From a virus, in IMG/VR virus record IMGVR_UViG_3300043788_000134, positions 5,882-69,881 of that record: a stretch of 64,000 bases of DNA. One strand, written 5' to 3'. The notes under the pieces are model-generated. The model made no database searches. It had not been told where the DNA came from and saw nothing but the letters and a program-made list of their open reading frames with translations. How positions within the stretch are numbered: position 1 is the stretch's first letter; each line of letters opens with the position of its first letter. This document shows, piece after piece, positions 2,557 through 43,395 of this stretch. A program made the position numbers and the translations under genes.

Positions 2557-3159
2557 TTACAGGCCGGAACGAAGGATTTGATTGTTGAAGCGGACAATGA
2601 CCCAGTTGTAGTTCGTCGTCGGGTCGGAACCGTTGCCGACGCCGGGGAACAGCGAATAGACCACGAAGGGCAAGCCGGAGGCCGTGGTGCCCGTGGTCGT
2701 GGCGATGGTCGATTGATCGACCGTCATTACCGAATAGCCTTGGCCGGTCTGTGACGCGGTAAAGCCGCCCGTGGTGTAGTTGATGAAATTCCCGATGTTC
2801 GACGAGACGATGGCGGTGGCCAGCGTTGCGACCTTGAACAACGCGCCGGGCGAATCGATCACGTAGGCGGTGGCGTCCTGGGCTGCGGCGTTGCCGGGCC
2901 AGAACGGCGACCATTGCGGGGTTTGGCCCGACAGCTGATAAACGCAACCGACGAAGATGCCCTCGATCGGAAGCGTGGTCGATGAATTGCCCTGGATGAT
3001 ATAAGCCGACGTGGCGTTGGCGCGCTGCACGACATCGCCGAATTGGATGGCCGTCGTATTGCTTTTGAGGATGCCGCGCGTCGATTGCTGATAGTCGGCC
3101 ATAAAGCCGGGGAGGTAGCCCCAATGTTCAAAGCCGAACTGTGATTGAGTATTTGCCAC
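2557..3159 (-). CDS. capsid-associated (decoration-like) protein
   Basis: 200 aa, GTG start with GGAG ~7 nt upstream, immediately upstream of capsid gene; Thr/Ser/Gly-rich. Confidence 0.35.
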   Translation of the reverse strand: MANTQSQFGFEHWGYLPGFMADYQQSTRGILKSNTTAIQFGDVVQRANATSAYIIQGNSSTTLPIEGIFVGCVYQLSGQTPQWSPFWPGNAAAQDATAYVIDSPGALFKVATLATAIVSSNIGNFINYTTGGFTASQTGQGYSVMTVDQSTIATTTGTTASGLPFVVYSLFPGVGNGSDPTTNYNWVIVRFNNQILRSGL

Positions 3160-3324
3160 GGCAAACTCCGAGCGGGGTTTTTATGACCCGACCCGGCAGG
3201 CGCTGCCAAGGCATCGAGGGGGTGGAATCGAACCGGCGCGGCTCGATCAGATAATGATGGATGAAGATATTATTTGCGGGCGAGTGTCAAGCGGGTTGTG
3301 GATAAGTTTTTTGGATCACGCTTT

Positions 3325-3370
3325 GGGTCACGAGAGGGCCTTCGTGGAAGCAGCACCGGATTCGGTCAAC
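3325..3370 (+). repeat. PIR half-site, subtype B1, forward
   Basis: gggtcacgagagggccttcgtggaagcagcaccggattcggtcaac; preceded by partial duplicate ttggatcacg at 3311-3320. Confidence 0.9.
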
Positions 3371-3371
3371 G

Positions 3372-5171
3372 TCACGCCGCCACGCCAAACGTCGCGGTTT
3401 CCAGATCGCTCACGGCAAGCCCGAACGCCGCGAATCGATCGGCCCAGTACGGCGACGTGTGCAATCGCTCGCGCAATCGCGCGATAAGCTGCACCGGCAC
3501 TCTGCCGTGCAAGCGATATTCGAGGACGCCCAAGAAATAGAGCGCAAAACCGTTTTCTGGCGAGATCACTTCCGACAGCACCGTGAGATTTTGCATCTGT
3601 TGCTTGATCTTGACCGGCCGCGTTTCGTTCAAGAGCCGCCGAAAATTCAAATGATAGTTCATGTAGAACCAGATATCGGTTATCTGCTCGCCGGTCGGAA
3701 TATCGTCTGGCTTGATTTTGGCGAAGGCTTCGCGAAAGCCGAGATGCGCGAGTATCAGACCTTGTTCGATCTCGGTTTGCTTGCCGTAAGAGCCGCCGGC
3801 AAAGCGCAACTCCTTCGATCCCACGTCCTGGATAAGACCTTGCGCCACCATCGCATCATAAATAGGCGTATTCGGGAGCGGTTGCAGAGGGCTGATTCGA
3901 TACCAATCACAGTCCATCTCGCGCGCCACATTGATCGTGTCGTGGACCATGCCGAGGGTTTCATTCGGAAAGCCCACCATCAAAAGGACGGACGTGTGAA
4001 TTTGCTCATGCTCGCGGAAAATTTGCGCCGCCTCGATGAAGTTTTCGAGCGTGCCTGGTTTTTTGACTTGGCGCAAGATCGTCCGGTTGCCTGATTCCAT
4101 GCCGATATTAACCGCGATACAGCCAGACTCGGCCATCGCGGCAACAAGAGCCGGCGTACACGACGACGCGATGATGCCGTTGGTGGCGTCCCAGGTGACA
4201 TCGATCTTTCTGCGGACAATCTCATTGAACATTTGCGTGGCGCGGTGCTCGTCCTTCAAAAGATCGTCATCGAGCCACATGAAGTGGCCGACGCCGTAAT
4301 CGTTCACCAGCATTTCGATTTCATCGACGACGTTCGTATAGTCGCGTTGGCGCACGCCCTTGCCGTTGAAATTCCGCACCGAGCAGAACGTGCACTGCGC
4401 GCGGCATCCGCGATTGGACAACACCGTGGCAAAAACCGTATCCTTGGGCTTGAAGCAATAAAACGCGCCGATCGTGCCGTGCTTGGAATGTTCGGGAATG
4501 TCGAGGAGGTCGAATGCCGGGATGATCGAGATATCTTCGGGCACGCAGTCGGCCGTTAGATGGATGCGTTCGGGTTTGTTGATGATGAGTTGAGCAAGGT
4601 CGGTCACGGGACGCAGCCGATTCACGGCTTGGACAAAGCGCGGCAACGACTCGTCGGCTTCGCGAAGGAACGCGGCGGAGACACAGGGAATGTCATCAAG
4701 CACACGCTCCACGTCGTTCGTCACATGCACGCCACCGATGGCGACAGGAGCGTAAGCCGCGGCGAAGGTGCACACGTCCTTGAGCGACTGATGACTCATG
4801 GTGAACATGCAGCCGACGCCGATCAGGTCCGGTGCGGTGTCATAGATGGCCTTGAACAAAGCCCACTTCCACGTCGCCGTGTGGTCAAAGGCCCCGCTTC
4901 CCCGCGCCGCCTTGAGCACGATATGATTCAGGTTCAGAATCTGCATATCCACGTCGATGGCGCGAAGCTGTTGCGCCAGCAACGCCAGTCCGTAGGGAGG
5001 GTAATTGGTGTAGCGACCGCGCTTGGCGATTTCAGGACGGAACAGGTTGGCATCCGCGTCGGGGGGGTTGACCAGAAGCACGCGGCGGATTTGGCGGGCG
5101 GGAAATAGCGCAGAGAGAGCCGCGTCCACAGCGGTTGGGTCATGAGAGCGGAGTGGCGGGGATAGGGTCAT
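3372..5171 (-). CDS. B12-binding-domain radical SAM enzyme
   Basis: 599 aa; N-terminal RVLLVNPP...GGVH cobalamin-binding-like region then CxxxCxxC motif CRAQCTFC; first codons lie inside PIR 5137-5182. Confidence 0.85.
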   Translation of the reverse strand: MTLSPPLRSHDPTAVDAALSALFPARQIRRVLLVNPPDADANLFRPEIAKRGRYTNYPPYGLALLAQQLRAIDVDMQILNLNHIVLKAARGSGAFDHTATWKWALFKAIYDTAPDLIGVGCMFTMSHQSLKDVCTFAAAYAPVAIGGVHVTNDVERVLDDIPCVSAAFLREADESLPRFVQAVNRLRPVTDLAQLIINKPERIHLTADCVPEDISIIPAFDLLDIPEHSKHGTIGAFYCFKPKDTVFATVLSNRGCRAQCTFCSVRNFNGKGVRQRDYTNVVDEIEMLVNDYGVGHFMWLDDDLLKDEHRATQMFNEIVRRKIDVTWDATNGIIASSCTPALVAAMAESGCIAVNIGMESGNRTILRQVKKPGTLENFIEAAQIFREHEQIHTSVLLMVGFPNETLGMVHDTINVAREMDCDWYRISPLQPLPNTPIYDAMVAQGLIQDVGSKELRFAGGSYGKQTEIEQGLILAHLGFREAFAKIKPDDIPTGEQITDIWFYMNYHLNFRRLLNETRPVKIKQQMQNLTVLSEVISPENGFALYFLGVLEYRLHGRVPVQLIARLRERLHTSPYWADRFAAFGLAVSDLETATFGVAA

Positions 5172-5182
5172 CGGTCACCGTT
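5137..5182 (+). repeat. PIR half-site, subtype B2, forward
   Basis: gggtcatgagagcggagtggcggggatagggtcatcggtcaccgtt. Confidence 0.9.
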
Positions 5183-5191
5183 CTATTGAGC

Positions 5192-5404
5192 TCAAACTAC
5201 GCCGATGTAAGCGGCCTTAAACCGTTGATAACTATCCTCCAGTACAGCCGCATCCAGATGATCAAAGGCGTTGAACCGTAAATGGGGATATTTCTCTAGG
5301 GTTGCCTCATGGCCACATTTGCCATCCTCTGGAACGCCGCGACGCAGTTCTTCGAGGCAAAAGGGGCACACGTCGTTGAACGGATCGAACGCGGTCATTG
5401 CCAT
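5192..5404 (-). CDS. small Cys/His-containing protein (70 aa)
   Basis: ATG 5404 with GGGGGAGG 8 nt upstream; MAMTAFDPFNDVCPFCLEEL...; only gene between PIR 5137 and PIR 5439. Confidence 0.45.
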   Translation of the reverse strand: MAMTAFDPFNDVCPFCLEELRRGVPEDGKCGHEATLEKYPHLRFNAFDHLDAAVLEDSYQRFKAAYIGVV

Positions 5405-5438
5405 TACTGTGCCTCCCCCTGATTTTACCATGGTCAGC

Positions 5439-5473
5439 GTTGACCGCACCGGAATCCCTGCGGTTCCGTGACC
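5439..5473 (-). repeat. PIR half-site, subtype A, reverse
   Basis: gttgaccgcaccggaatccctgcggttccgtgacc. Confidence 0.9.
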
Positions 5474-5478
5474 AAATC

Positions 5479-6399
5479 TTAATTCACCGGGAGACGTTCC
5501 GCAACACGTCCGCCGAACGATTGCCGGAATCGCCACCGATCGATGCGTGCCACCTTGTAGGCAATAACATCAATCGACGGCGTGAATTTCGTCGCCATAC
5601 CTCCGGTCGGCTTCAACGACGCCCGCAACGGCCGAGGTTCGCTATAGACGATTTCGGAGAACGGCACCGGCTCAAACGCCATCCGGGCGCCCAACAGGCT
5701 TTGCTCTTTGACCATTTGCGCCAATTCCGCCCGCGACACCGCCGGTTGACTGACCAGATGATAAATCCGTCGCGTCACGGGCTTTGTCGCAATTTCCAAT
5801 AAGCCTCTCGCCGTATCGTTCACGTCCGATACATTGAAAATATTATCCACCGCCATGCGCGCGTTCGGTTTGAGCAGCGTTTCATAGCATTGCGCCACCG
5901 GGCAGTGCTGGCCTTGGACCCATCCCACGTTCCATCCCGTGCGCGCCACGACGCCGCGCGGCGTGCACAGCACATGACTTTCCACGGCAGCTTTCAATGC
6001 GCCGTAGACATTGAGCGGGCGTCGTGCGGTATCTTCGGAGCAATCCCCCGCTTTACCGTCAAACACCTGGTCGGTAGATAAAAACACCACCCGCGCGCCG
6101 GCGTCGTCCGCATCATCGACGAGGTTCTTGCTGGCGTGCAGATTCAAAAGCCACGCCGCTTCCTGATTCGCGTAAATCCACGCAGGAGCGATATAGCCCG
6201 CAAGCAGCACCACCACATCGTCAGCATTCAAGTCGGGAACCACGGTGCGCAGCGACGCGGTTCGCATGTCGAACGGCACGAGGCCGTAGCGCACACGGCT
6301 TAAAGCGGTGCCAATGGCTGGTACACGCGCGGTGCGGGCCTCTTGGTGAAGCACACTGCCGATGACGCCGGAGGCACCGACGATGATGATTCGGGTCAT
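5479..6399 (-). CDS. RmlD-like NAD(P)-dependent sugar reductase (dTDP-4-dehydrorhamnose reductase family)
   Basis: IIIVGASGVIGS Rossmann motif, LSTDQVFDG and YGALK motifs; ATG 6397-6399 lies inside PIR outer block (CTCTCATGACCC). Confidence 0.7.
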   Translation of the reverse strand: MTRIIIVGASGVIGSVLHQEARTARVPAIGTALSRVRYGLVPFDMRTASLRTVVPDLNADDVVVLLAGYIAPAWIYANQEAAWLLNLHASKNLVDDADDAGARVVFLSTDQVFDGKAGDCSEDTARRPLNVYGALKAAVESHVLCTPRGVVARTGWNVGWVQGQHCPVAQCYETLLKPNARMAVDNIFNVSDVNDTARGLLEIATKPVTRRIYHLVSQPAVSRAELAQMVKEQSLLGARMAFEPVPFSEIVYSEPRPLRASLKPTGGMATKFTPSIDVIAYKVARIDRWRFRQSFGGRVAERLPVN

Positions 6400-6439
6400 G
6401 AGAGCGGAGCGGCGAGTGAGAGGATTATCGGTCACCGTT
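6393..6439 (+). repeat. PIR half-site, subtype B2, forward
   Basis: gggtcatgagagcggagcggcgagtgagaggattatcggtcaccgtt. Confidence 0.9.
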
Positions 6440-6448
6440 GCTCACAAA

Positions 6449-6694
6449 TTATTGCGGCCGACTTCGACGACAACAATCTTGCTCGGATCGACCATTTCGC
6501 TCAGCGTCTCGACGGCGTTCTTGTCCCGGTCGTACGGCTTTGATCGCCGCTTCGGCGCGTCTGCCATAGAACGCCAGATCGTGAGTGTAGGCAGCGCGGC
6601 CGATCAGGAACGAAATGACAGAATAGATACCGCCAATGTCGCCCAAGAGGCGGCCGGTGGAAGTTCCGAGAACGGCGTGAGTTGGAAATTTCAT
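6449..6694 (-). CDS. small hypothetical phage protein (81 aa)
   Basis: ATG 6694 with GGAGG; MKFPTHAVLGTSTGRLLGDIGG...; only gene between PIR 6393 and PIR 6723; leader nearly identical to that of ORF 25934. Confidence 0.45.
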   Translation of the reverse strand: MKFPTHAVLGTSTGRLLGDIGGIYSVISFLIGRAAYTHDLAFYGRRAEAAIKAVRPGQERRRDAERNGRSEQDCCRRSRPQ

Positions 6695-6722
6695 AGCTTC
6701 CCTCCTATTACAAACAACCGCG

Positions 6723-6757
6723 GTTGACCGCACCGTAATCCCGGCCTCTCGTGATCC
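6723..6757 (-). repeat. PIR half-site, subtype A, reverse
   Basis: gttgaccgcaccgtaatcccggcctctcgtgatcc. Confidence 0.95.
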
Positions 6758-6762
6758 AAAGA

Positions 6763-7713
6763 CTACTCCGCCGCAACCTCAAATCCCCGATGCAGATCGC
6801 TCGCCGGCTTATTCCACACCGTACAGCCGGAGCACATATCGATCCGATCGCGATTCCCCGCAAGATGGAGTTCGCGCCGCTCATTCTGCAGCTTGCTTTG
6901 CCACAACTCCGCGATGGAATGCGTCGCCACATCGCCCAGCGGATGTTTGTTGTTGTAATCGACATTGCACATCGGCACCTTGCCGTCGGCAAAGATCACC
7001 ATGAGCGACCACAGCGCCACGCAAGGCAGTTTGTTCGGCCTTTCCGGATCAAAGCCAGCCAACTGGCCGCCCCAATTGTGAATATTGAGAAAATAGCAGC
7101 GGTCATTATCGCGCAACAACGGTTTCCAATAGGCATAGAACGCCGGAAACTCATCGCGATTGGATTCCTGGCGAATCATCCGCACCCAGATCGAGCATGA
7201 CGGGCGGATTTTGTCGCGCATTTTGATAAACCGCAGAGCGTTCTTCATCACGGTCTCAAAATTAAGCCGCACGCGGATTGCTTCAAACACGGCCTTGTCG
7301 AGACTGTCAATCGACAGCACCACTTCATCGATTCCAGCCTCAAGAATCGCCGTGGCGCGATCCTCGTCCAGCAATTCGACGTTGGTGGAAATGCCGACGT
7401 TCTTGATGCCGCCGCCCTTCAATCGCTTGATGCGCTTCGGCAGCTTCTTGTCCAAAAGCGGTTCGCCGTCGCGATAAAGCGCCACGCGCTTGACATCGTG
7501 CTTGTGCGCGCAAATCTCCGCCGCGATGACCTCGAACAGCGCGTCGTTCATGCTCGGCGTATGGCGCGTCCAATCGTCGATCGTGCACATCGGACAGCGC
7601 GCGTTGCAGGCGTTCACCGTCTCGATCTCGAAATAGAGCGGAAAATCGGAAAGCGACGCGAACGGCCGCTCCGGCGCGATGCGATTTGACAGGTAGGTTT
7701 CGAGCGGCGTCAT
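6763..7713 (-). CDS. radical SAM enzyme with C-terminal SPASM/twitch-like Cys cluster
   Basis: 316 aa from MTPLETYL; CNARCPMC radical SAM motif; C-terminal CVALW...MCNVDY...CSGC; ATGA overlap with upstream gene at 7710-7713. Confidence 0.8.
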   Translation of the reverse strand: MTPLETYLSNRIAPERPFASLSDFPLYFEIETVNACNARCPMCTIDDWTRHTPSMNDALFEVIAAEICAHKHDVKRVALYRDGEPLLDKKLPKRIKRLKGGGIKNVGISTNVELLDEDRATAILEAGIDEVVLSIDSLDKAVFEAIRVRLNFETVMKNALRFIKMRDKIRPSCSIWVRMIRQESNRDEFPAFYAYWKPLLRDNDRCYFLNIHNWGGQLAGFDPERPNKLPCVALWSLMVIFADGKVPMCNVDYNNKHPLGDVATHSIAELWQSKLQNERRELHLAGNRDRIDMCSGCTVWNKPASDLHRGFEVAAE

Positions 7714-8543
7714 TCCGCCGCCACCGCCTGTGGCTGCTGTTGCGGCTGCGCTTCGACCTGCTGCGCGGGAGGAAACGGCGTCGCCACCTGGAAGATTTGC
7801 TTTTGCATCGCCTCTTGCATGGCCGCCTGTGCTTCGGCTTGCGCCTGCTGCTGCGTAATGTGCTGCAGGTAGCACGCCGAATAATCGTGCATCCCGACGT
7901 GCGAAATCGGATAGGCGATGGCCGCCCACACCTGACCGCCGCAACGGTTCCAACGGATGCAGAACGATAAATCCTCCGACACGATCCCGCGTTCGGGAAT
8001 GTCCAGCTTCTCAAAGGCGCGAATCAATCGCGTGGCGCCGGCCTGTTTCATAAGGCTTGCGGCCGGATGAAGATCGAGCCGCGTATCCACGAGTTCGGGA
8101 AATTGCTGCAGCATCTTCGTCACAACATCGCGACGAATCAGCGTGCAGCCCATGCCGACGCCTTCCACCAGCATAAAATTACCCCGGCGTTCCGTGGTCG
8201 GACCGCCGGAGCCCGATCCCGCCCATGACGTGGGATAGCGCCGTTGCGGATAGATCGTGCCGACCACGGGTTCGTCGAACAAAATCATGTCGAGAACCAT
8301 TTCGGGCGAAAAGCCCATATCGGAATCGATCTGCAGGAAATAATCGACTTGCGGCATCGTATCGTACCAGATCGTCAGTGCCATCGATCGCAGTTCGGCG
8401 ATGTCGGGGAATGACAGCGCGGACACTGAGGCATTGATCGCCTTCGCCGCGAGCATCTGTTGCAATTGCAGCGTGGTCAGGAACGTCGTCGTCGTCAGCG
8501 TGTTGCCGAAGGCGGGGATGAAGGTGAAAACGTGCTTTGCCAT
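7710..8543 (-). CDS. glycosyltransferase (GT-A-like, DxD)
   Basis: 277 aa from MAKHVFTF; QIDSDMGF (DxD) and EDLSFCIRW motifs; Gln-rich C-terminal tail. Confidence 0.6.
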   Translation of the reverse strand: MAKHVFTFIPAFGNTLTTTTFLTTLQLQQMLAAKAINASVSALSFPDIAELRSMALTIWYDTMPQVDYFLQIDSDMGFSPEMVLDMILFDEPVVGTIYPQRRYPTSWAGSGSGGPTTERRGNFMLVEGVGMGCTLIRRDVVTKMLQQFPELVDTRLDLHPAASLMKQAGATRLIRAFEKLDIPERGIVSEDLSFCIRWNRCGGQVWAAIAYPISHVGMHDYSACYLQHITQQQAQAEAQAAMQEAMQKQIFQVATPFPPAQQVEAQPQQQPQAVAAE

Positions 8544-8562
8544 TTTATGCTCGGTTTTGTTT

Positions 8563-8597
8563 GGGTCACGAGAGGCCGGGATTACGGTGCGGTCAAC
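8563..8597 (+). repeat. PIR half-site, subtype A, forward
   Basis: gggtcacgagaggccgggattacggtgcggtcaac; contains stop codon (TGA, 8593-8595 minus) of ORF 8593-9540. Confidence 0.95.
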
Positions 8598-9540
8598 CGG
8601 CGTAAGCGCGAGGAAACGAAACAATCGTATTCGACGGCGACAGCGCCTCGCGGAACGCGCTCGCTTGCGCCTTGTCCATCCCAAAATCGTCGAGCAGATG
8701 CGGAATCATGTCGATGGCGCGCTGCTTGATGCGCAGATAGCGCTCGTCTTTCGGATTAAGCCCGGACATCATGTCGAGTTGCCGCGACTGGGCCCGCACG
8801 GTGTCGTTGACCCACTTGGAACGGTATTCGATCAGCGGATGATGCCGCAGCAGAATGTCCTTATGCCATTGCGGCGTATTGAAGTCAGGATCATTGATGA
8901 TCTTGTGCGCTTCGGCGCGGCGCTTGAGATAAGCCGCATCGAACCACGTCGCCCACCAGCCCGGCTCGCGCATTTCCATGGTTTTGCCGGCACCGGATTG
9001 GTCTGTCCCCACATCGGCAAACGAAATACGCCCGATCATTCGCCCCACGTCGTCGGTCCAATGGTCGGCAAACCAATACGGGAAATATTCCGGCTGCAGC
9101 TTGTTGTCGTTTTTCTCCGCCCATTTTGCGGTATAGGCGATCACGCTCGGAAACGAAGCGTTTGCCATCCGGCCATAGACAATGCCGATGCCGTCAGGAA
9201 AACGTAACGCGGCCTCCAGCAGCAATTCGTCGGTATTCGGCGTGATATAAACGTCATCGTCGGACGCATTGAGGTAAAGATCGCCAGGCTCCGACAATCC
9301 GCGATTCCATTTTCCGGCTACGGTATCGTCGCGCTTTTTGACGTTGATCGTAATGCGCGGATCGAGCTTGCCTTCGTCGTATGCCGCGCCAAGCATCGCC
9401 ACCGTAGCGAAGTCGTCCGAATCACACTGCACGATGACCTTGGTATCCGCCCGCGAAAAGCACGCCATGTGGCGCGGCAGCGTCCCCATCAACTGTTGCG
9501 CACGATTGCGCGTCGCCACGCTTACAACAAGTCGCGCCAT
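8593..9540 (-). CDS. glycosyltransferase-like protein (GT2-like)
   Basis: 315 aa; N-terminal VVSVATRNRAQQL and acidic CDSDD / ASDDD motifs resemble GT2 enzymes; weak call. Confidence 0.45.
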   Translation of the reverse strand: MARLVVSVATRNRAQQLMGTLPRHMACFSRADTKVIVQCDSDDFATVAMLGAAYDEGKLDPRITINVKKRDDTVAGKWNRGLSEPGDLYLNASDDDVYITPNTDELLLEAALRFPDGIGIVYGRMANASFPSVIAYTAKWAEKNDNKLQPEYFPYWFADHWTDDVGRMIGRISFADVGTDQSGAGKTMEMREPGWWATWFDAAYLKRRAEAHKIINDPDFNTPQWHKDILLRHHPLIEYRSKWVNDTVRAQSRQLDMMSGLNPKDERYLRIKQRAIDMIPHLLDDFGMDKAQASAFREALSPSNTIVSFPRAYAG

Positions 9541-9551
9541 GTTTTACCTCC

Positions 9552-9764
9552 CTATTTCCAACGTCCAAGGTCTAGCTGTTCCGGCGGCGCCGTAGGCGCT
9601 TCCATGACCACACCATCGATCACCATAGGTGGTCGCGCCAATTGCGGCCCGCACTTCACGACACAATAGCCGTCGGCATCATACGTGCCGACAAAATATT
9701 TTCGCTCGCTATTGAACGGCATTAAGAGACACGGAGTTCCAACTAACTCGGCAGGGAACGGCAT
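9552..9764 (-). CDS. hypothetical protein (70 aa)
   Basis: ORF track; tightly packed in operon; lower GC than flanks. Confidence 0.35.
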   Translation of the reverse strand: MPFPAELVGTPCLLMPFNSERKYFVGTYDADGYCVVKCGPQLARPPMVIDGVVMEAPTAPPEQLDLGRWK

Positions 9765-9773
9765 AAACGACTC

Positions 9774-10049
9774 CTACGATTGGGGACTCAAATAGTGTGT
9801 ATCCGTTGCACGTTCCACACCGTACAGTGATTTATAAAAATCATCCGCTTGCTTCATCAGGTGCGGGAATACCTCTTTGGTGCAATCAAAACACCATAAA
9901 TCCTCGCCACACACGCCAACAGATGCACCACCGAAACAGGGTGATACATTAATCTTCCATGCGGTCATGAGTGTTGTCTCGGCACGACATCGGTCACAGT
10001 AATATGACGCTGGCACTTCCCGCTTGGCTATTTTTTTATCAAGAAACAT
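9774..10049 (-). CDS. Cys-rich small protein (91 aa)
   Basis: ATG 10049 with GGAAGGGA upstream; CDRC...CGEDLWCFDC pattern. Confidence 0.4.
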   Translation of the reverse strand: MFLDKKIAKREVPASYYCDRCRAETTLMTAWKINVSPCFGGASVGVCGEDLWCFDCTKEVFPHLMKQADDFYKSLYGVERATDTHYLSPQS

Positions 10050-10086
10050 CGCACATCCCTTCCACGATTGGGTGACCGTGATGCGG

Positions 10087-10665
10087 CTATGCTTGCACCG
10101 CGAGTGAATGATCCACAACCTTTTTTTGCGACCGCCACGGATCAAAAAAGCTTCCGTTCCATCGCGTCAGTCCGACCTTGCGCGCCACACCGATATCGAC
10201 GACCATTCCCGCGAAATCCTCAACGTCCTCGCTGGAAATCCGCGAGGGCCGCACGATCGCCGCAGGGACCGTGCGCAGATACGACTCAACATGTGCCTTT
10301 TGCCGTCCATAAGCCGTGGCACCAGCTTTCTCCACGGCCTCCGACGAAATGAATACAATAAATGCGCCGGTTTGCACATAATGTTGCGCAATCTCTATCT
10401 GCGCGTCCACATTCACCCGCCACGATAACGGATTCGATTCACAGTCCACAAATTTGCTCATCGCGCCGACCAGATAAATCGTGCCACTCGTTATCATCGG
10501 CAGATATTGCCAATCGATCGCCGCGAGATCAAGAAACACCGGATCGGGCCAAGATGGAAAGGCGCCGACCTTGCGGCTCGTCGCTTGCCACGCCAAGTGA
10601 CGGCGCTGTAATTCCTGTCGCAATGCCATTCCGACCAGGCCATCACCCCCAATCACGAAATGCAC
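10087..10665 (-). CDS. short NAD(P)-binding Rossmann protein (RmlD/SDR-like)
   Basis: VIGGDGLVG glycine motif, FISSEAV...YGRQK resembles RmlD S...YxxxK. Confidence 0.5.
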   Translation of the reverse strand: MHFVIGGDGLVGMALRQELQRRHLAWQATSRKVGAFPSWPDPVFLDLAAIDWQYLPMITSGTIYLVGAMSKFVDCESNPLSWRVNVDAQIEIAQHYVQTGAFIVFISSEAVEKAGATAYGRQKAHVESYLRTVPAAIVRPSRISSEDVEDFAGMVVDIGVARKVGLTRWNGSFFDPWRSQKKVVDHSLAVQA

Positions 10666-10668: not shown

Positions 10669-11289
10669 TCACTCTCCGGGTTCGGCGAGCGGCAAGGACG
10701 GCGATGGAATATCGAGCGCCGGATCAATCGACATGCGGAGATTGCCGCCGGTGCCGCGATATTTTGGATTCATCGAGTCCTCGGGCATATTGCGCGCCAG
10801 CCCCGCTTTGCCGCCCATCAGCGATTCGTCGCGGTCGCGCATCTGTCGCCGCGCCGCCGCTTCTTCTTCCTGCGCCGCTTCCAACGTCATGCTCAGCGGC
10901 CGTTCTTCGAGCCTCATGCCGTCGCGGATGATGTCGCCTTTTTTGCCGACAGGCACGAAGCGGCCGGGATGTCGCTCCGCCGGCACGGGGCGCCAGCCGT
11001 TTTCGTACATCTGCATCGCCTGACCGACCGTCAAATCCTCGCGGTTATAGACGGTCACCGTGTTCCATTGGTAGCTGTAGCCCTTGGGAATCAGTTCCTT
11101 GGGGATGTGGAATTGATCGATGCCGGCTTGACGATGACGTGTCAGCACATTGCCGTCACGGTCGCGATGCACGACTTTCGCCTCACGCGTCGGCTGGCGC
11201 GTCGAACCGCGAGGGCGCCCGCGGCGTGGCGCAGTTGGCTGTTCCGCGGTTTCGAGCGCGGCTTCGTCGATGCTTTCGGCTTCGGTCAT
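10669..11289 (-). CDS. hypothetical head-module protein, paralog of 11286-11648
   Basis: ATGA overlap at 11286-11289; shares YSYQWN...GWRPVPAERHP motif with upstream ORF. Confidence 0.5.
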   Translation of the reverse strand: MTEAESIDEAALETAEQPTAPRRGRPRGSTRQPTREAKVVHRDRDGNVLTRHRQAGIDQFHIPKELIPKGYSYQWNTVTVYNREDLTVGQAMQMYENGWRPVPAERHPGRFVPVGKKGDIIRDGMRLEERPLSMTLEAAQEEEAAARRQMRDRDESLMGGKAGLARNMPEDSMNPKYRGTGGNLRMSIDPALDIPSPSLPLAEPGE

Positions 11290-11648
11290 GAGCAGGTTTC
11301 CTTTGAGATAAGATCGAACAACCATCGAAGCCACAGCCGGCGGGCTACGCGGCGAACAATCACGACTTGCGTTACCGTAACTGGCTGCGGCTTTTCGACA
11401 ATGATCGGGGACGTTTCCACAATACGCGCGGCGGTTTTGTCATCCCCAATCCGTCTGAATTCCGGCGGGGGCTTGTTCGGATGCCACTTCGCCGGTACTG
11501 GCACCCAGCCGTCGGCAAGCATCCTAAAATAGCTTTCTTGCACTTCGCCCAGAACTTTTTTAGCATTCCATTGATAGGTCATCCCCACAGGCACCATGCT
11601 TTTTGGAAAGTCAAACGGATCACTGCGTTTAACTGGCGTAAGACTCAT
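11286..11648 (-). CDS. hypothetical head-module protein, paralog of 10669-11289
   Basis: MTYQWN...GWVPVPAKWHP motif shared with downstream ORF. Confidence 0.5.
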   Translation of the reverse strand: MSLTPVKRSDPFDFPKSMVPVGMTYQWNAKKVLGEVQESYFRMLADGWVPVPAKWHPNKPPPEFRRIGDDKTAARIVETSPIIVEKPQPVTVTQVVIVRRVARRLWLRWLFDLISKETCS

Positions 11649-11654: not shown

Positions 11655-12674
11655 CTACTGCTGAATGAAATTCATCGGATCGTAGCGGCCTTCTGCGGTC
11701 ATGGCCTGCTTGCGGCGGGCCATCTCCTGGACCCCGATAGGATCGCCTTTCTTGAACCGCTTCTGCCCCGACGGATCGTCGTAGTTCCACGTCAAGGTGC
11801 CGTCGGTCGCCGCTGCGGCCTCGCCTTTGCTCAATCGCACCACGCTTCCGCCTCCCGTGGTTTCACCCGCTGTGGTATTGACCGGCGCAACCGGGGCCGG
11901 CTTGGCGCGTGTCTTGCCATTAGTTGCCCCATTCGTCTTGTTGGTTGCGTCCTTCAAACCCAAAAACTTTTCGATATGGGCGAAGTATTCCGGCGTATCC
12001 CGCGCATAGCCCTCCGCCACCGCGTCGCTGTCGGCTGCGTTGATCTTCGCGGCGCGCCGCGAATCGGTGCCGAGTGCAAGCGCGCGGGCTTCCACTGGAT
12101 GCTCGCGGAGCCATTTCTGTGTCTCGGGGGTGCGTGTGGAAAGAAATATTTCAAGCGGATCGCCCTGCGGCTGGCGCTGCGTTTCCTGCTGGCGTTGCTC
12201 CGGCTTTTGCGTCTTGGCGATTTCCAGATCGCTCTTGGCTTCGTCGAATCTAACGATGCGTGCCTGCGCCGCCGCAAGCCTCTCTTGTGCCTCGGCGGCG
12301 CGCTTCCAGTCGCCCGCCTCTTGCGCGGCAATGTAATCCGCCTTTGCCGCCGCCGATTCCGTCTTGGCAGCTTCCAGTCCGGTTTCGACGGCGCCGAGTC
12401 GCGATTCGACTACTTCCGTCCGTGAGGTTTCGACCTCGCGCTCCGCCGCCTGGCGGCCGCGTTCGGCTTCGCCGGCGCGGCGTTCCGCCGCCTCGCGCGC
12501 CGCACGTTGGCGCTCGCTCTCAGCCTGCAGTTCGTCGTACTGCGCCTTGAGCTCGGCGACAGGATCGGGCGCGGTCTTCGCCTGGGTCTTTCCCGTTTCG
12601 CCTGCGTTTTCTTCCGGCGCGGGCGCTTCGATTTCGACGACAATATCTTCGTCAGCCATTGCGGTCCTCATCAT
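11655..12674 (-). CDS. scaffolding-like coiled-coil protein
   Basis: 339 aa, Ala/Glu/Arg/Gln-rich helical repeats, between portal and capsid genes; true start may be ATG 12659 (GAGGA upstream). Confidence 0.45.
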   Translation of the reverse strand: MMRTAMADEDIVVEIEAPAPEENAGETGKTQAKTAPDPVAELKAQYDELQAESERQRAAREAAERRAGEAERGRQAAEREVETSRTEVVESRLGAVETGLEAAKTESAAAKADYIAAQEAGDWKRAAEAQERLAAAQARIVRFDEAKSDLEIAKTQKPEQRQQETQRQPQGDPLEIFLSTRTPETQKWLREHPVEARALALGTDSRRAAKINAADSDAVAEGYARDTPEYFAHIEKFLGLKDATNKTNGATNGKTRAKPAPVAPVNTTAGETTGGGSVVRLSKGEAAAATDGTLTWNYDDPSGQKRFKKGDPIGVQEMARRKQAMTAEGRYDPMNFIQQ

Positions 12675-12839: not shown

Positions 12840-13274
12840 TCACCAGAAAATCTCCGGGTCGGACACGACCATTTTCACGTTGACATCCTCGAACAGCCGG
12901 CACGGCACTTCGCGGATGTAAAGTTGCAGTCCGTCGGAGGGGCGAGTCAACACCCAATCGCCTTCTTTCACCGCCTTTCCGTGAAAGAATACGCCGCGCG
13001 GCGGATCATCCTTGAACGCGCCGGGGCCGACCTTGATGACGAGGCCGATCGATCCTTGAAATTGGTCTTCCTGCAGGTTCTTGTCGGTGCGGAGAATCTT
13101 CGTGCCAGCGTGATATTTTGATCCCGCATAAGTCGTTACCAACACCTGCGAGTGCAGCACTTGTTCATCGGCGATGTTGCCGAGTTCCTTGAGAATCGCC
13201 ATCTTGGGCGACTTCCCGTCGGACACCGCCTCCACAATATCGCGGAGCTTACCGACCGCATTTGAACGCGCCAT
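12840..13274 (-). CDS. GroES/Cpn10-like fold protein
   Basis: ...QVLVTTY...GLVIKVGPGAF...AVKEGDWVL...EDVNVKMVV spacing resembles co-chaperonin; by eye only. Confidence 0.35.
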   Translation of the reverse strand: MARSNAVGKLRDIVEAVSDGKSPKMAILKELGNIADEQVLHSQVLVTTYAGSKYHAGTKILRTDKNLQEDQFQGSIGLVIKVGPGAFKDDPPRGVFFHGKAVKEGDWVLTRPSDGLQLYIREVPCRLFEDVNVKMVVSDPEIFW

Positions 13275-13492: not shown

Positions 13493-13503
13493 TTGGACTC
13501 ACT

Positions 13504-13538
13504 GGATCACGAGAGACAGGGATTACGGTGCGGTCACC
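13504..13538 (+). repeat. PIR half-site, subtype A, forward
   Basis: ggatcacgagagacagggattacggtgcggtcacc. Confidence 0.9.
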
Positions 13539-13768
13539 AACAGCTTGTCGCGGTCAAAAACAACAGCAACAAATTCCCAGTTAGTGCCCGGCACTTTAAG
13601 CTCCATCATCCCTCTGGCAATAGCTATCAGTTCGTTCCTTATCATTAGAGCGGATGGTGTTGGGCGACGACAAAAACTCACTCGGAATCGTGCGGTGATT
13701 TGAACGATCGCGCGCGTCCACCAACAGCCAGTACAATGTGTACATTTCGATCACCATATTCCACTCAA

Positions 13769-14847: not shown

Positions 14848-15093
14848 TCAGGTGACCGATTCCGGTCTCTCAACCGCCCAAAACTCGCGTGACACAAGAG
14901 GCACCGCGCCGGCCGCGTCCATCTCGGCAACAATCTCTTGGTGTGTCGCCTCGCGCCATTGAAGCGGTGGAAACGCTCGCAGACCGTTTGGGGTAAAGAA
15001 CGCCTTGCCGACCTTGCGGTATGGCACCCATTCATCGTGGATTTTGCCCATCGCATTACACTTGCGCAAGTAGTTCGATTGCTCCGGCGTCAC
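14848..15093 (-). CDS. hypothetical protein (81 aa)
   Basis: ATGA overlap with portal stop. Confidence 0.45.
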   Translation of the reverse strand: MTPEQSNYLRKCNAMGKIHDEWVPYRKVGKAFFTPNGLRAFPPLQWREATHQEIVAEMDAAGAVPLVSREFWAVERPESVT

Positions 15094-17333
15094 GAGCTAC
15101 CTCCATTTCCACCGCCCGAATCAGCCGTCGCGGGAGGCTGCAACGCTTGATGCACATTCAAGGCATGTTCCGCAAGGTCCATCTGGCGGTCATGCACGCC
15201 TTGCACAGCCTCCAAACCAGCGGTCTTTTGCGCGTTCGCGGCGTCCGCCTTGTGGATAACCATTTCCTTGGCAAGATTGACCGTAGCTATATTCTGTTCG
15301 GTGGCGAGTTCGGCCTGTTTGATTTGGTTTTCCTGCTGCGCATTTTGCGCATCTGCTTGCGCCTTTTGCGCGCCCGTCGTGGCCTGGGTCATCTTCGCCT
15401 CCGCGGCGATCAATTGCGGATTCGGCTGCGGCGCGGCGGCAGGCGGTGCCTGGATCAATCCCGCCGGGTCTTCGCGAATCACCGCCAAGATGCGCTGCAA
15501 GGTTTCGGTCGGATTCATGATCGGCGTGAATGCGGGAATAGCGATCAATTGCGCGAGCGCCACGCCTTTTGCCACACGATGAATGTGCGACGGCGTATTG
15601 GGATCGGAGCGCGGCACCAAGTTACAATCGTTTAGCGCCTGCAAGAACTTTTGCTCGTTCCAAAAATCCTTGCCGCAAATCTTATTGGACTTCCAGAAGT
15701 CCTCCGGGTTTTGTTTGAACAATTCGACAATCAATTCGATTTCCTCGGCCTGGGCCTGGTGCATGCCTTTGAACGCCGCCGACATGACCTTGGTTGCCTG
15801 CTCGATCTGCGCCATCATCGTGCCGACCGGGACGTTTTGAATGCCCTCCGCCGTCGGGGTATCGGCCACGCCGCCGACGGCTTGGGCTTGCGACGTAATC
15901 TTGTCGATCAGCGCAAGAAGGCCCGGCGTCACGTCCTTGTAGGGCAAGCCCTGAATCACTTGATTGATCGGCTGTCCATTCGTCTCGATCGGCATGAACG
16001 TGCCTGCGGCCAAGCGAAAGTCCGATGTGTTTTGTCGCCCTCCCAGTTTTGAAATCACCCCCGACGGAAAATTCGCATACATGCCGGCGTCAAGCGCCTC
16101 GCGCCACGCCGCGGTCATCGCCATTGACGAGTTACCCAGAATATTCAGCATCCCCGTGCCGTAGAATCCAGGTCCAGGCACATACGGATATTTGACGTAC
16201 ATCCGCTTGCGCTCGCACTCGTCGTCATCCTCTTTCCAGTCGCGGCGAATCGCAAGAATCTCTTTGGAATCCTTGTCCATCGTTACGATATAGGGCAGCG
16301 GAATACCTTCGTCCTTGAACTTGCCGGGCGCGTACTGACGCAGATCAAGCTCGCACTGCGTTTCCCACAAATTGTACGGCTGGTCTTCCGGCCGCCTCTG
16401 ATTCGTTTGCGTACCTTGCTGCTGTTCTATTTGCTCATTGACGGCATTAGGCGCCGCCGCCATCGGCTGCGGTAACGACACATCGCGATAGGCGCCGAGC
16501 AATTGCATGCGTTTCATGACCGAAGGACGCATCTGAATTTCGTGCGTGATGCGCGAGCACGAGCGCAAATCCTTGATGGTGTCAGAGACGATCAAATCCT
16601 TCGCATCGACGCTTTCCGAAACTGGCCGCCGGCGCATCGGGCAGCGGTAGACTTTCTTAAATCCCGATCCTCCAAAATAGGTACCCCACAACAGCATGTG
16701 CGACGTGTCGGGATAATATTCCGACGCCGTCGTCGTCAGATAATAATTCATGTCGCGCTCGAACGCTTCGGCCAGTTCATCTTCGCCCTGCGTATCGGCA
16801 CCGTCGTTGCCATCGTCGGCTATTTTAACTGGACCTTCGGACGGCAACAGTTCGGCTTGCGCGTTTGCCCATCCCTTCAAAACCGCTTCAAGCAACAGCG
16901 GATTGGTGACCGTCGAAAGTCCTTCGACTGCCGCAGACGTATCGGCCGCGTTCGCGCGCGGTTCCTTGATCTCCAGTCCGAGCAGTTCGATGCCGCGGGC
17001 ACGGATGGCAAGATAATTGGCGCGCGATTGATTGTCGGCATTGACCTGGTCCCAAAGTTCGACAGAAATTTTGCCGAGTTCAATGGCTGGTATTCGTTCG
17101 GCGAGATTTTCGTAAAATGGATCGTCGTCCGCGTCTGTTGCTTTGGGACGCCGCGCGTCCAACTGCACGATCACGCCACCATCGTCGGCCGGACTTGTGA
17201 CGGTGCCGGTCACGGGATCGACGCTCTCCACGTTGTCGTCATCGTCAATGACGACGGAAACGCCTGAGACTCCCGCGGCGTCAGCCATGGAAGTCACTTT
17301 CGGCATCACGAGAGGTTGTGCCGTTTGCAGCAC
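15090..17333 (-). CDS. portal protein
   Basis: 747 aa, follows terminase genes after three small ORFs, acidic N- and C-terminal regions; likely start ATG 17306 (inside PIR, CTCTCGTGATGCC) or 17288. Confidence 0.7.
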   Translation of the reverse strand: MLQTAQPLVMPKVTSMADAAGVSGVSVVIDDDDNVESVDPVTGTVTSPADDGGVIVQLDARRPKATDADDDPFYENLAERIPAIELGKISVELWDQVNADNQSRANYLAIRARGIELLGLEIKEPRANAADTSAAVEGLSTVTNPLLLEAVLKGWANAQAELLPSEGPVKIADDGNDGADTQGEDELAEAFERDMNYYLTTTASEYYPDTSHMLLWGTYFGGSGFKKVYRCPMRRRPVSESVDAKDLIVSDTIKDLRSCSRITHEIQMRPSVMKRMQLLGAYRDVSLPQPMAAAPNAVNEQIEQQQGTQTNQRRPEDQPYNLWETQCELDLRQYAPGKFKDEGIPLPYIVTMDKDSKEILAIRRDWKEDDDECERKRMYVKYPYVPGPGFYGTGMLNILGNSSMAMTAAWREALDAGMYANFPSGVISKLGGRQNTSDFRLAAGTFMPIETNGQPINQVIQGLPYKDVTPGLLALIDKITSQAQAVGGVADTPTAEGIQNVPVGTMMAQIEQATKVMSAAFKGMHQAQAEEIELIVELFKQNPEDFWKSNKICGKDFWNEQKFLQALNDCNLVPRSDPNTPSHIHRVAKGVALAQLIAIPAFTPIMNPTETLQRILAVIREDPAGLIQAPPAAAPQPNPQLIAAEAKMTQATTGAQKAQADAQNAQQENQIKQAELATEQNIATVNLAKEMVIHKADAANAQKTAGLEAVQGVHDRQMDLAEHALNVHQALQPPATADSGGGNGGSS

Positions 17334-19928: not shown

Positions 19929-20630
19929 TCAAGCCACGGAATTTCCCATGCGATAGTTCAGGTCAATTTCAATTCCCAGTTCCTTCGCCTGCTGCGCGAG
20001 TTGCGCGATTAATTCAGCATCCGTCAAACGCCGCAAATCGCCATCGTCGCGAGAGACAATACCGATTCCCAAAAGCTTTCTCAATTCCTGATTTGCCGCC
20101 ATGCGCGAGTAAGCCTTAGGCACCACACGGCCGCGCTCGTCGATCGAACAGGCCTCGATGCACCGCTGTGCGTCTTCTGAAAGCTCCGACAACAATTTCG
20201 GCCGCTGAATTTTCTTTTTCAGCGGTTCGCCGTCCTCGCCGAGAATAGGATTGCCCTGCTTATCGGTGCGATCGACCTCCACCGTCTCCCACAAATCCGC
20301 GTAATTGAATTCGTGCATCGACCACAGCACTTCCTCCAGCCGCCGGCGCTTTTGCTGTAGGATTTCTTCCTCCTGCCGCGACAAATAGGCTACGCGATCT
20401 TGGATATCGATGCGCGCCAGCAAGCGTGATGCGTTGCCTTCCGCAGTGTGATCCGTGGTTGCCTTGAACCGGCAGGAGCGATAGGCCTCGCCCTTCGGCC
20501 GCAATTGGGCGATCAGCCAGCAGAATCGCTCGTGGCGCCGATTGCGCAGTGGATTGGCACCGGGCAACGCCGAAACCGGCACCAAAGCCGTTGATTTATC
20601 GAGGTTTTCCGGCTCGGTTACGGCGTCCAT
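19929..20630 (-). CDS. terS: terminase small subunit
   Basis: 233 aa; NRRHERFCWLIAQ...GNASRLL motif typical of small terminase; directly upstream of terL. Confidence 0.7.
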   Translation of the reverse strand: MDAVTEPENLDKSTALVPVSALPGANPLRNRRHERFCWLIAQLRPKGEAYRSCRFKATTDHTAEGNASRLLARIDIQDRVAYLSRQEEEILQQKRRRLEEVLWSMHEFNYADLWETVEVDRTDKQGNPILGEDGEPLKKKIQRPKLLSELSEDAQRCIEACSIDERGRVVPKAYSRMAANQELRKLLGIGIVSRDDGDLRRLTDAELIAQLAQQAKELGIEIDLNYRMGNSVA

Positions 20631-22518: not shown

Positions 22519-22821
22519 TTATGGCGTGAGTAGATTGCAGCGTTGGGTCATGCGAGCGGAGTGTGTGACGAGAGAATCATCGGTCACCGTCTCGCTTTGC
22601 ACAGTCGCGGTTGACCGCACCGTACCCACATATCCCTCGTGACCCAACTCTTTCTTCACGGCTTGGTCTAACTCCTTCCGCCACCGCATCACCCGCTCTC
22701 CCGCCGCAACGATAGTAGCATGGCGCCCTTCGTAGCTCTTGGCGAATGCAACAAACAAATAATCAAACGACGCCTTTTCAAGCTCACGCTCGGCCTCTTG
22801 ACGCCACATCGCTGTCTCCAC
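22519..22821 (-). CDS. hypothetical protein whose last ~44 codons read through a PIR pair
   Basis: 100-aa ORF; C-terminal ...GHEGYVGTVRSTATVQSETVTDDSLVTHSARMTQ... is encoded by PIR 22610 and 22545. Confidence 0.35.
   Translation of the reverse strand: METAMWRQEAERELEKASFDYLFVAFAKSYEGRHATIVAAGERVMRWRKELDQAVKKELGHEGYVGTVRSTATVQSETVTDDSLVTHSARMTQRCNLLTP
22545..22590 (+). repeat. PIR half-site, subtype B2, forward
   Basis: gggtcatgcgagcggagtgtgtgacgagagaatcatcggtcaccgt. Confidence 0.85.
22610..22645 (-). repeat. PIR half-site, subtype A, reverse
   Basis: gttgaccgcaccgtacccacatatccctcgtgaccc; 19 nt from PIR 22545 (empty pair). Confidence 0.85.
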
Positions 22822-24387: not shown

Positions 24388-24626
24388 GATTGCCCCTCCA
24401 AAAGCTTGCCGAGGGCGGACTGGGGCAGCGGCGGGTCGCCGAATAGCACCATGGCGCGGGTGAGAGGAACCGATTCGCGGCGCGCACGGTCGGCTAGAAC
24501 TTCGGGAGGAGGTGGTTCTTGGGGGGTGGAACGGAGGAAATCGGGGGGGATATAGCGGTGTTGGGCGTTGACGCGGGCGCGATGTAACCGGCGCCGTTCG
24601 GCGGCTATGGCGGGAGGAAGCGGCAT
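24384..24626 (-). CDS. Pro-rich hypothetical protein (80 aa)
   Basis: ATG 24624-24626 sits in PIR outer block (CTCTCGTGATGCC); ATGA overlap downstream. Confidence 0.35.
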   Translation of the reverse strand: MPLPPAIAAERRRLHRARVNAQHRYIPPDFLRSTPQEPPPPEVLADRARRESVPLTRAMVLFGDPPLPQSALGKLLEGQS

Positions 24627-43385: not shown

Positions 43386-43395
43386 GGCGGTATTT

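Follow-up and report, generated by a model that had tools for sequence, protein, structure and literature searches.

We analyzed a 64,000-nucleotide stretch of viral DNA (positions 5,882 to 69,881 of IMG/VR record IMGVR_UViG_3300043788_000134, hereafter the window), with attention to a group of sugar-modification genes at 3372-10665 on the minus strand (the island). The island lies within the head module of a phage and encodes two glycosyltransferases (GTs), two radical S-adenosylmethionine (SAM) enzymes and two RmlD-like reductases. Judged by comparisons of gene content and order, it is one allele of a hypervariable locus in a large phage family, whose members we take to be phages of Alphaproteobacteria. 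The interpretation that we favor, and to which we would give about an even chance, is late cytoplasmic glycosylation of a capsid-surface protein with a host-supplied nucleotide sugar that is remodelled by the island's cassette. A wider proposal is more tentative: phages of Alphaproteobacteria and an unrelated P22-like lineage may possess a "virion serotype locus" with conserved GTs and exchanged sugar cassettes, in the manner of O-antigen loci, and the window would then represent a rare variant, in which B12-dependent and twitch radical SAM enzymes build a C-branched or epimerised higher sugar on the capsid surface.

The island was first noticed in a reading of the DNA made from the letters alone (the sequence-only reading), which placed it between a scaffold-side paralog pair and the capsid genes; both its position and its gene content were as described there. 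All virion genes of the window are on the minus strand, as are all head-module and island genes whose coordinates are given below. At the 5' end of the minus-strand order, the head module starts with TerS (19929-20630), followed by TerL (18138-19925), portal (15090-17333), a GroES-like protein (12840-13274), a scaffold-like coiled-coil protein (11655-12674) and, directly upstream of the island, the paralog pair (11286-11648 and 10669-11334). Three genes lie on the other side: p200 (2557-3159), the major capsid protein (MCP) gene (1628-2542; phrog_371 at 2.8e-8, with PF25209 assigned to orthologs) and TS431 (294-1589). Within the island, the order is RmlDs192, two small open reading frames (ORFs), GT2l, GT1, SPASM316, a DUF7736 gene, RmlD318, a doubtful 114-aa ORF and B12rSAM, and six of these genes (RmlDs192, GT2l, GT1, SPASM316, RmlD318 and B12rSAM) are conserved in sister phages.

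By MCP, the nearest phages in GenBank were MW202675 (60% identity) and Pelagibacter phage HTVC023P (38%). In each of them the order is GroES, scaffold, a protein of ~165 aa, a p200 homolog of ~193 aa and MCP, with no island between these genes. This comparison of gene orders indicates that the island is an insertion at a head-module site, and a conserved one. Megablast of 12 kb against GenBank phages gave no match. The paralog-pair family is kept in the whole phage group and in MW202675, and many relatives have two copies of it.

A scan of IMG/VR with a GT2l profile yielded 56 loci, onto which a panel of proteins was then mapped. Approximately 45 of them, all from uncultured phages of ~70 kb, share the arrangement TerL-portal-GroES-scaffold-par221-[GT2l...GT1]-p200-MCP-TS431. 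The island had appeared to be a one-off insertion, but these relatives carry a swappable sugar locus at the same spot, with at least four types of cargo between or beside the GT pair. The commonest (type A) consists of an HldE-like kinase/nucleotidyltransferase, a GmhA-like isomerase, split transketolase-like proteins, a different 382-aa radical SAM/SPASM protein and methyltransferases. Type B includes a DegT-like aminotransferase and DUF6016, and type D has the two GTs alone. The radical-SAM cargo of the window (type C) was found in only two other places: locus L004 (JGI Ga0599164_0000283), where the six island genes are 41-81% identical, and a 29-kb ENA contig. Both have all six enzymes at this site, with the gene order unchanged. 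Since the GT pair is retained in almost every member of the family while the cargo differs, the GTs are the constant part of the locus and the sugar pathway is its variable part. Across the family, MCP is 85-94% (~90%) identical, in comparison with 45-68% for TerL, portal, scaffold, GTs, p200 and TS431; such a high MCP identity relative to other head genes points to unusually strong constraint or a recent sweep of the capsid gene.

More distant homologs of both GT2l and GT1 were present in ~12 further IMG/VR loci on an unrelated, P22-like backbone (PF16510 portal, PF11651 coat), where the GT pair comes after the coat gene and before the genes for head closure. Thus, GT genes are located in or beside the capsid genes in ~45 family loci and ~12 P22-like loci. 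In the P22-like locus scanned for domains (L048), GT1 is fused to a TylF-type sugar O-methyltransferase. Most P22-like GT loci also have, between the coat gene and the GTs, a T/S/A-rich protein of 461 aa with four ~90-aa repeats and no family match (L048 8590-9975; homologs in L046, L053, L054, L057 and L058), a possible decoration or acceptor protein.

HNH endonuclease genes adjoin the MCP gene in the relatives L004 (14156-14842), L009 (20037 onward) and L047 (4119-5029), 0.5-1.2 kb of extra DNA is present between p200 and MCP in L013, L019, L042, L045 and L049, and in L047 the match to MCP is split. These observations suggest that homing endonucleases or introns are active near the capsid gene of these phages.

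The sequence-only reading had called two proteins of the island glycosyltransferase-like, and although both are marginal by sequence, high-confidence structural models gave GT-A folds with invariant DxD motifs. GT2l (315 aa, 8593-9540), a conserved core gene, was assigned to GT-A (GT2-like) enzymes on the basis of its DxD motif and an AlphaFold2 (AF2) model searched with Foldseek. Its match to the Pfam GT2 family (PF00535; E=0.0098) missed the threshold, with 16.3 bits versus a gathering cut-off of 23.3. In the model (pLDDT 93.5; Foldseek probability 1.00 for the GT-A fold), the top matches were PcManGT, TarP, TarS and RmlT (E 2e-9 to 1e-7), and residues D40/D42/D43 and D94-D96 are invariant. 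We found 360 homologs at E<=1e-5; the best 120 of these 360 all exceed 50% identity and come from contigs no longer than 74 kb, and GT2l is almost confined to phage-size contigs. No homolog was present in the GenBank phage set, and 185,579 species genomes contained only two loci, one on a binned phage contig and the other chromosomal. The latter, the sole chromosomal GT2l homolog (47% identity), is located on a 2-Mb contig of an uncultured alphaproteobacterial metagenome-assembled genome (L066 2599-13623), between two TPR-GT41 (OGT/FlmG-like) protein-glycosyltransferase genes and with a TPR-methyltransferase gene in the same locus. The locus may serve protein glycosylation in the bacterium, with a relative of the phage GT.

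The second core gene, GT1 (277 aa with the true start at 8543; 7710-8543; phrog_1574 at 1.5e-15), had no Pfam match. Its family contains 2275 representatives at E<=1e-3, and Anp1/GT62 was weakly matched in 7 of 62 members. The DxD motif (D73, D75) and E190-D191 are invariant, and the protein is 62-81% identical across the phage family. The AF2 model (pLDDT 93.7) again has a GT-A fold (Foldseek probability 1.00), whose top PDB matches were STIV A197 (a viral GT), the collagen hydroxylysine GTs LH3 and COLGALT1, and Mimivirus R699. Many GTs of uncultured phages and one PBCV-1 protein were among further structural matches.

The last gene of the island encodes a class B (cobalamin-binding) radical SAM protein of 599 aa (B12rSAM, 3372-5171). 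As proposed in the sequence-only reading, it has both a B12-binding domain (PF02310 at 9.3e-10, residues 55-178) and a radical SAM domain (PF04055 at 4.3e-20, residues 253-414), with CRAQCTFC as its CxxxCxxC motif. It could not be placed in any characterized subfamily (PhpK, BchE, HpnJ, GenK-like and others), as all 31 of 31 NCBIfam matches were far below cut-offs, the best being TIGR04479 with 97 bits versus a cut-off of 600. QCMT (9ccb, 3e-16), AprD4 and TsrM were the best PDB matches; with QCMT (9CCB), TsrM and GenK/Fom3-type enzymes the protein has in common a B12-binding Rossmann domain and a radical SAM core, and no subfamily threshold was reached. We detected 1398 homologs at E<=1e-10, and the closest bacterial ones are 60-75% identical and occur within glycan clusters. 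By these comparisons, B12rSAM belongs to a separate, uncharacterized and well-conserved family whose genes almost invariably occur within glycan clusters of bacteria, often beside an RmlD-like gene. A scan of IMG/VR with the B12rSAM protein alone found no relative, and a scan of JGI metagenomes found bacterial-type homologs only (<=72% identity).

The other radical SAM enzyme, SPASM316 (6763-7713; PF04055 at 1.3e-14 and PF13186 at 1.6e-11), had been described as SPASM-type. It is indeed a radical SAM protein with PF13186, but of the twitch kind and not full SPASM. The true ORF has 316 aa and starts from ATG 7713 (the longest ORF, of 396 aa, was set aside), so that the protein begins ~25 residues ahead of the CxxxCxxC motif without any N-terminal extension. 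Only four Cys residues are C-terminal to the core, and the seven-Cys motif of full SPASM proteins, which have two auxiliary clusters, was absent; since all four Cys align with the auxiliary-cluster Cys residues of BtrN (4m7t) at 8.8e-11, the enzyme is of the twitch type. BtrN (PDB 4m7t) is a 2-deoxy-scyllo-inosamine dehydrogenase and a twitch radical SAM enzyme. It resembles SPASM316 in the radical SAM core, the C-terminal four-Cys auxiliary domain and the carbohydrate/cyclitol context; however, similarity is low outside the twitch domain, and SPASM316 occurs in a nucleotide-sugar cluster and not in an aminoglycoside cluster. The family, a large and well-conserved bacterial one, includes 765 homologs at E<=1e-10, and SPASM316 is 60-68% identical to bacterial orthologs that adjoin RmlD-like genes. 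It is a predicted candidate for an enzyme that oxidises a sugar C-H bond or alcohol.

Two RmlD-like NAD(P) sugar reductases had also been recognized, and both indeed contain PF04321 together with the GxxGxxG and YxxxK motifs of short-chain dehydrogenases/reductases (SDRs). RmlD318 (5479-6435; PF04321 at 1.5e-27), the partner of B12rSAM, is a full-length member of the NAD(P)-dependent sugar ketoreductase/epimerase family. RmlDs192 (192 aa, 10087-10665; PF04321 at 1.6e-7, PF01370 at 1.5e-4), the first gene of the island, is truncated and lacks the C-terminal substrate domain; it is 41% identical to its 184-aa ortholog in L004, and the ENA 29-kb contig has an ortholog of 191 aa. Neither qualified as an RmlD equivalog: TIGR01214 gave 83.8 bits for RmlD318 and 21.6 bits for RmlDs192, versus a cut-off of 224, and the island has no RmlA/B/C partner genes. 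A similar segment of ~50 nt is present at the 5' ends of the B12rSAM and RmlD318 genes (5134-5182 versus 6390-6439; 22 nt at 95% and 22 nt at 86%), so that both proteins begin with related peptides, suggesting a duplicated translation-initiation region.

The radical SAM/RmlD set is not an invention of the phage. The four cargo genes match a cassette of alphaproteobacterial glycan clusters with 43-73% identity, and matches of both radical SAM proteins were found in Tagaea, Paramagnetospirillum, Magnetospirillum, Skermanella and Magnetovibrio. Compared to adjacent bacterial genes, B12rSAM is 61-73% and RmlD318 43-59% identical; the gene immediately upstream of the B12 radical SAM gene matches RmlD318 with 59% identity in L007 and 43% in L003. 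We examined neighborhoods in 80 metagenomic bacterial loci with B12 radical SAM genes (L068-L147). Both radical SAM types were present together in 27 of the 80, and in L097 an RmlD gene, a B12 radical SAM gene, a twitch radical SAM gene and a short RmlD-like gene (a 30% match to RmlDs192, following the SPASM gene) are consecutive, as in the phage cargo. GT1, GT2l, p200, MCP and TS431 homologs were absent from all 80. Genes that neighbor the bacterial cassettes include those for HldE-like, SIS (GmhA-like) and APH-like kinase proteins, the N- and C-terminal halves of transketolase, DegT, DUF6016, methyltransferases, carbamoyl- and sulfotransferases and ABC transporters, and one cluster is located beside flgF/G/A/H. 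DUF6016 neighbors the pair of B12 radical SAM and RmlD genes in L003, L007 and 26 of the 80 bacterial loci and also occurs in type-B phage islands; it is probably an uncharacterized component of the same sugar pathway.

With regard to the sugar itself, no RmlA/B/C-type genes were found in the island by Pfam and NCBIfam scans, and a panel of sugar-activation genes (HldE, SIS, transketolase and DegT) had no homologs anywhere in the window. This bears out the earlier statement that RmlA/B/C genes are missing, and the island thus lacks a nucleotide-sugar activation step. The match to the bacterial cassette and the lack of activation homologs in the window imply that the phage took the tailoring sub-cassette and not the activation steps. 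Since the bacterial clusters hold HldE-like, GmhA-like, APH-like kinase and transketolase genes, the substrate is likely a heptose or other higher-sugar nucleotide and not an RmlABCD-type 6-deoxyhexose. The sequence-only reading had suggested decoration of virion proteins with an unusual modified deoxy-sugar: a virion target is still the best supported, but a heptose or higher sugar is more likely than a deoxy-sugar of this type.

The chemistry of every step and the identity of the acceptor are predictions, and the following scheme is offered as such. The host would make a nucleotide-activated sugar, probably of the heptose type or another higher sugar from its own glycan cluster, and this would be remodelled late in infection. 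The twitch enzyme SPASM316 would abstract hydrogen, in a BtrN-like radical oxidation of a sugar carbon, and B12rSAM would carry out a cobalamin-dependent radical step, perhaps C-methylation of an unactivated carbon, which is the commonest reaction in class B radical SAM enzymes (PMC12931638). The RmlD-like SDRs would reduce the resulting keto intermediates. GT2l and GT1 would then transfer the sugar, in the cytoplasm and before or during head assembly, to p200, TS431 or MCP. The outcome would be a glycan coat on the virion, with a chemistry that varies between related phages. A cytoplasmic, phage-specific acceptor, in the simplest case a protein of the capsid surface, is favored by several observations: the GTs are soluble; lipid-carrier, flippase and polymerase genes are absent from the locus; GT2l is nearly absent from bacteria, and its one chromosomal homolog is located among GT41 protein glycosyltransferases; GT1 resembles viral and protein-directed GTs; the GT pair accompanies coat genes in two lineages; and there is a precedent in mycobacteriophages.

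Among the candidate acceptors, p200 (200 aa), encoded immediately upstream of MCP, is Thr/Ser-rich (21%) and may be an acceptor or decoration protein. It is 45-78% identical across the family, has a variable T/S-rich loop and has homologs in the two phages without an island, MW202675 (35%) and HTVC023P (gp39, 32%). TS431 (431 aa), encoded after MCP, is a Thr/Ser/Ala-rich candidate acceptor or capsid-surface protein that is not homologous to p200. It had no Pfam, PHROG, PDB-profile or GenBank-phage match, and full-length orthologs were found in at least 15 GT-bearing phages.

A number of points weigh against this interpretation. Virion glycosylation is a prediction, and p200, TS431 and MCP are candidate acceptors. 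The GT-A fold of the modeled enzymes does not disclose the class of acceptor, Foldseek TM-scores to protein-GTs were modest (0.42-0.46), and the GT41 context of GT2l comes from a single chromosomal locus. TS431 is not homologous to the 461-aa T/S-rich protein of the P22-like lineage. The identity of each head protein was compared for phages that share an island type and for phages that do not; the differences were small and similar for all proteins, and therefore co-variation with island type does not single out p200 or TS431 as the acceptor. The chemistry of both radical SAM enzymes is extrapolated from distant relatives, with curated models far below cut-offs. Promoter and terminator scans gave counts at background and nothing above it, so that the assumption of late co-expression of island and head genes depends on position and strand only. 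Finally, the window is a segment of the phage genome, and ~6 kb of the source contig lies beyond it.

The sequence-only reading had listed host envelope conversion, DNA modification and peptide processing as alternatives, for all of which we found little support. In the first, an unlikely one in our judgment, the island would act on a host surface glycan during infection or lysogeny, remodelling the lipopolysaccharide O-antigen, the capsule or the glycan of flagellin and thereby blocking superinfection or the re-adsorption of progeny to lysed cells. The cargo does derive from bacterial surface-glycan clusters, one of them beside flagellar genes, the window encodes an integrase-family protein (36332-37282), and TarP, one of the best structural matches of GT2l, is a prophage-encoded wall-teichoic-acid GT. 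However, GT2l has almost no bacterial homologs, and none of the 80 bacterial B12 radical SAM loci had a GT1 or GT2l homolog. Flippase, polymerase and initiating-transferase domains were not detected in any island ORF by Pfam and NCBIfam, and no island enzyme has transmembrane segments. No membrane components of Gtr-type systems (GtrA/GtrB/GtrV) were found, and ~26 kb separate the island from the integrase-family gene; the locus lies within the head operon, and not beside an integrase or attachment site, in both of the unrelated capsid lineages.

A metabolic or non-structural role also appears rather unlikely. In that case, the enzymes would act on a small-molecule glycoside or a nucleotide-sugar pool, by synthesis or breakdown, for example to starve a host defence or reprogram the synthesis of the envelope, and the head site would be a tolerated insertion hotspot. 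Unrelated small ORFs do occupy the equivalent intergenic site in MW202675, HNH genes are inserted nearby in relatives, and cargo is freely gained and lost. A hotspot alone, however, does not explain why the GT pair is kept in almost every family member and recurs beside the coat gene in the P22-like lineage.

We consider DNA hypermodification improbable. Here the GTs would put a tailored sugar on a modified phage base to evade restriction. Known phage clusters put hexose, HexNAc or heptose on 5-hydroxymethylcytosine (5hmC) and, like the phage locus described here, contain GTs (GT-A enzymes) and nucleotide-sugar genes, including heptose activation and APH-like/cytidylyltransferase genes (Pyle et al., bioRxiv 10.1101/2023.12.21.572611); sister islands of the window likewise carry HldE-like genes. 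These clusters differ in having a C5-methyltransferase and 5mYOX/TET core in DNA-metabolism neighborhoods. No C5-cytosine methyltransferase, TET/5mYOX or hydroxymethylase (dCMP/dUMP) was detected among the ~30 window ORFs scanned (many window ORFs are still unannotated), and the only DNA methyltransferase found has an NPPF motif, without PCQ/ENV. In addition, the island is in the head module and not among DNA-metabolism genes, and the same is true in the P22-like lineage. The methyltransferase just mentioned, a DNA amino-methyltransferase (phrog_799; 22784-24028, minus strand), overlaps a DUF1937/nucleoside 2-deoxyribosyltransferase-like gene (24010-24666, minus strand), and the two genes may form a module for DNA modification or nucleotide salvage that has no connection with the island.

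Maturation of ribosomally synthesized and post-translationally modified peptides (RiPPs), in which the radical SAM enzymes would modify small Cys-rich peptides of the island, is highly improbable: SPASM/twitch and class B enzymes do include peptide maturases, weak NCBIfam matches to ApyD and other RiPP models were seen, and four small Cys-containing ORFs are interspersed in the island, but these ORFs are not conserved, on which ground we reject the RiPP reading, the twitch enzyme leaves no space before its CxxxCxxC motif for a recognition domain (no extension of the RRE type) and has a C-terminal domain that aligns with a carbohydrate enzyme, BtrN, and orthologs of both radical SAM proteins occur in sugar clusters beside RmlD-like genes and not beside peptides, with no conserved precursor peptide in the island.

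The Cys-rich mini-proteins of the sequence-only reading do exist as ORFs, but they are not meaningful features of the island. By tblastn, nothing in 147 related loci matched the four small Cys-containing ORFs, the sister locus L004 included, and their GC content at third codon positions (GC3) is lower (0.51-0.58). One of the small ORFs (9774-10145, likely ATG start 10049; GC3 0.52) has four Cys (CxxC...CxxC) and no Pfam, PHROG or NCBIfam match. A 70-aa ORF (9552-9764), preceded by the Shine-Dalgarno sequence TAGGAG, is not conserved. The doubtful 114-aa ORF (5192-5536), with a CxxC...C.H pattern, overlaps the 3' end of RmlD318 and is not conserved. The ORF at 6449-6733 encodes a small DUF7736 protein (PF24875 at 6e-10, phrog_15963 at 7e-12) that likely starts from the ATG at 6694, with a strong Shine-Dalgarno sequence (6449-6694).

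A 40-nt repeat, TTTGGGTCACGAGAGGCCGGGATTACGGTGCGGTCAACCG, is present throughout the genome in both orientations, mostly in intergenic positions and far above chance (0 expected). A full copy is located in the space between GT2l and GT1 (8560-8599, plus strand), inverted relative to a second full copy upstream of the DUF7736 ORF (6721-6760, minus strand); a further copy lies outside the island (43393-43432, plus strand), and degenerate copies (13501-13540 and 56854-56893) and half-sites at ~17 positions were also found. The six copies of this repeat (PIR) reported for the island resolve into the two full copies, two partial ones (3322-3337 and 5439-5462) and two half-sites with three mismatches, which are the duplicated 5' gene segment described above. 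The repeat occurs in type-B relatives (L013, L019, L022, L032 and L042) and is absent from the L004 island. A role as island boundaries was ruled out, given that the repeats are genome-wide, in both orientations and missing from the sister island of L004. The element is possibly a regulatory site, a recombination site or a miniature mobile element.

Elsewhere in the window, an IS1595-family transposase gene (31045-31941, minus strand; PF12762 at 3e-35 and a zinc ribbon) coincides with a low-GC patch at 30001-31000, the lowest-GC kb of the window (0.49 versus ~0.57), and looks like a recent insertion of an insertion sequence.

Returning to glycosylation of the capsid surface, several known systems can be compared with the locus. 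To our knowledge, actinobacteriophages with simple GT sets are so far the only phages for which glycosylation of the virion has been shown. Mycobacteriophage GT genes (Che8/Corndog/cluster O, F1) were experimentally shown to modify capsid and tail-tube proteins, according to Freeman et al. 2023 as cited in PMC11600133, PMC11256854 and PMC12619734. As in the window, these phage GTs, some with an O-methyltransferase, are in or beside the structural genes. However, mycobacteriophages have hosts of another phylum and another capsid lineage, and glycosylation in the present family is predicted; the GT pair described here is in addition accompanied by a swappable nucleotide-sugar pathway, which in the window includes two radical SAM enzymes.

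In PBCV-1 and giant viruses, an A064R-type GT plus methyltransferase and PLOD/GT25-like GTs serve capsid or fibril glycosylation. These viruses encode cytoplasmic GT-A and sugar-tailoring enzymes of their own for structural proteins, as the phages described here would if our interpretation is correct. The fold of GT1 matches a PBCV-1 protein, Mimivirus R699 and the PLOD-like GT domains of giant viruses, at a sequence identity of only 9-14%, and the GT/O-methyltransferase fusion of the P22-like relatives recalls the PBCV-1 type of GT plus methyltransferase. PBCV-1 and giant viruses differ in being viruses of eukaryotes, and we know of no radical SAM enzymes involved in their glycosylation. A further parallel is provided by alphaproteobacterial O-antigen/capsule loci and flagellin glycosylation islands, which draw on the same gene pool and have conserved flanks around hypervariable sugar cargo. 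The phage locus is unlike them in its location in a head module, in the absence of export, polymerisation and lipid-carrier genes, and in having GTs with almost no bacterial homologs.

Literature searches yielded no report of a phage family whose capsid module contains heptose or radical-SAM genes. We also did not find described a family-wide hypervariable sugar locus in the head module that is bracketed by two conserved, phage-specific GTs, or a variant of such a locus with B12-dependent and twitch radical SAM enzymes; the individual enzyme classes and virion glycosylation as a phenomenon are already known.

The locus offers a handle on an uncharacterized conserved bacterial cassette (B12 radical SAM, twitch radical SAM and RmlD-like reductases) that is part of many alphaproteobacterial glycan clusters, and its compact phage version, with six genes and no export machinery, would be a convenient system for reconstituting this cassette. 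If the favored interpretation is correct, radical SAM sugar chemistry would have been recruited by phages, diversifying the glycan coats of their particles, and glycosylated capsids would be widespread among the phages that infect Gram-negative bacteria of soil and freshwater. Their glycan would come from a modular, rapidly exchanged locus like the O-antigen loci of bacteria, which would imply selection on the virion surface, whether through host recognition, evasion of defences, particle stability or grazing.

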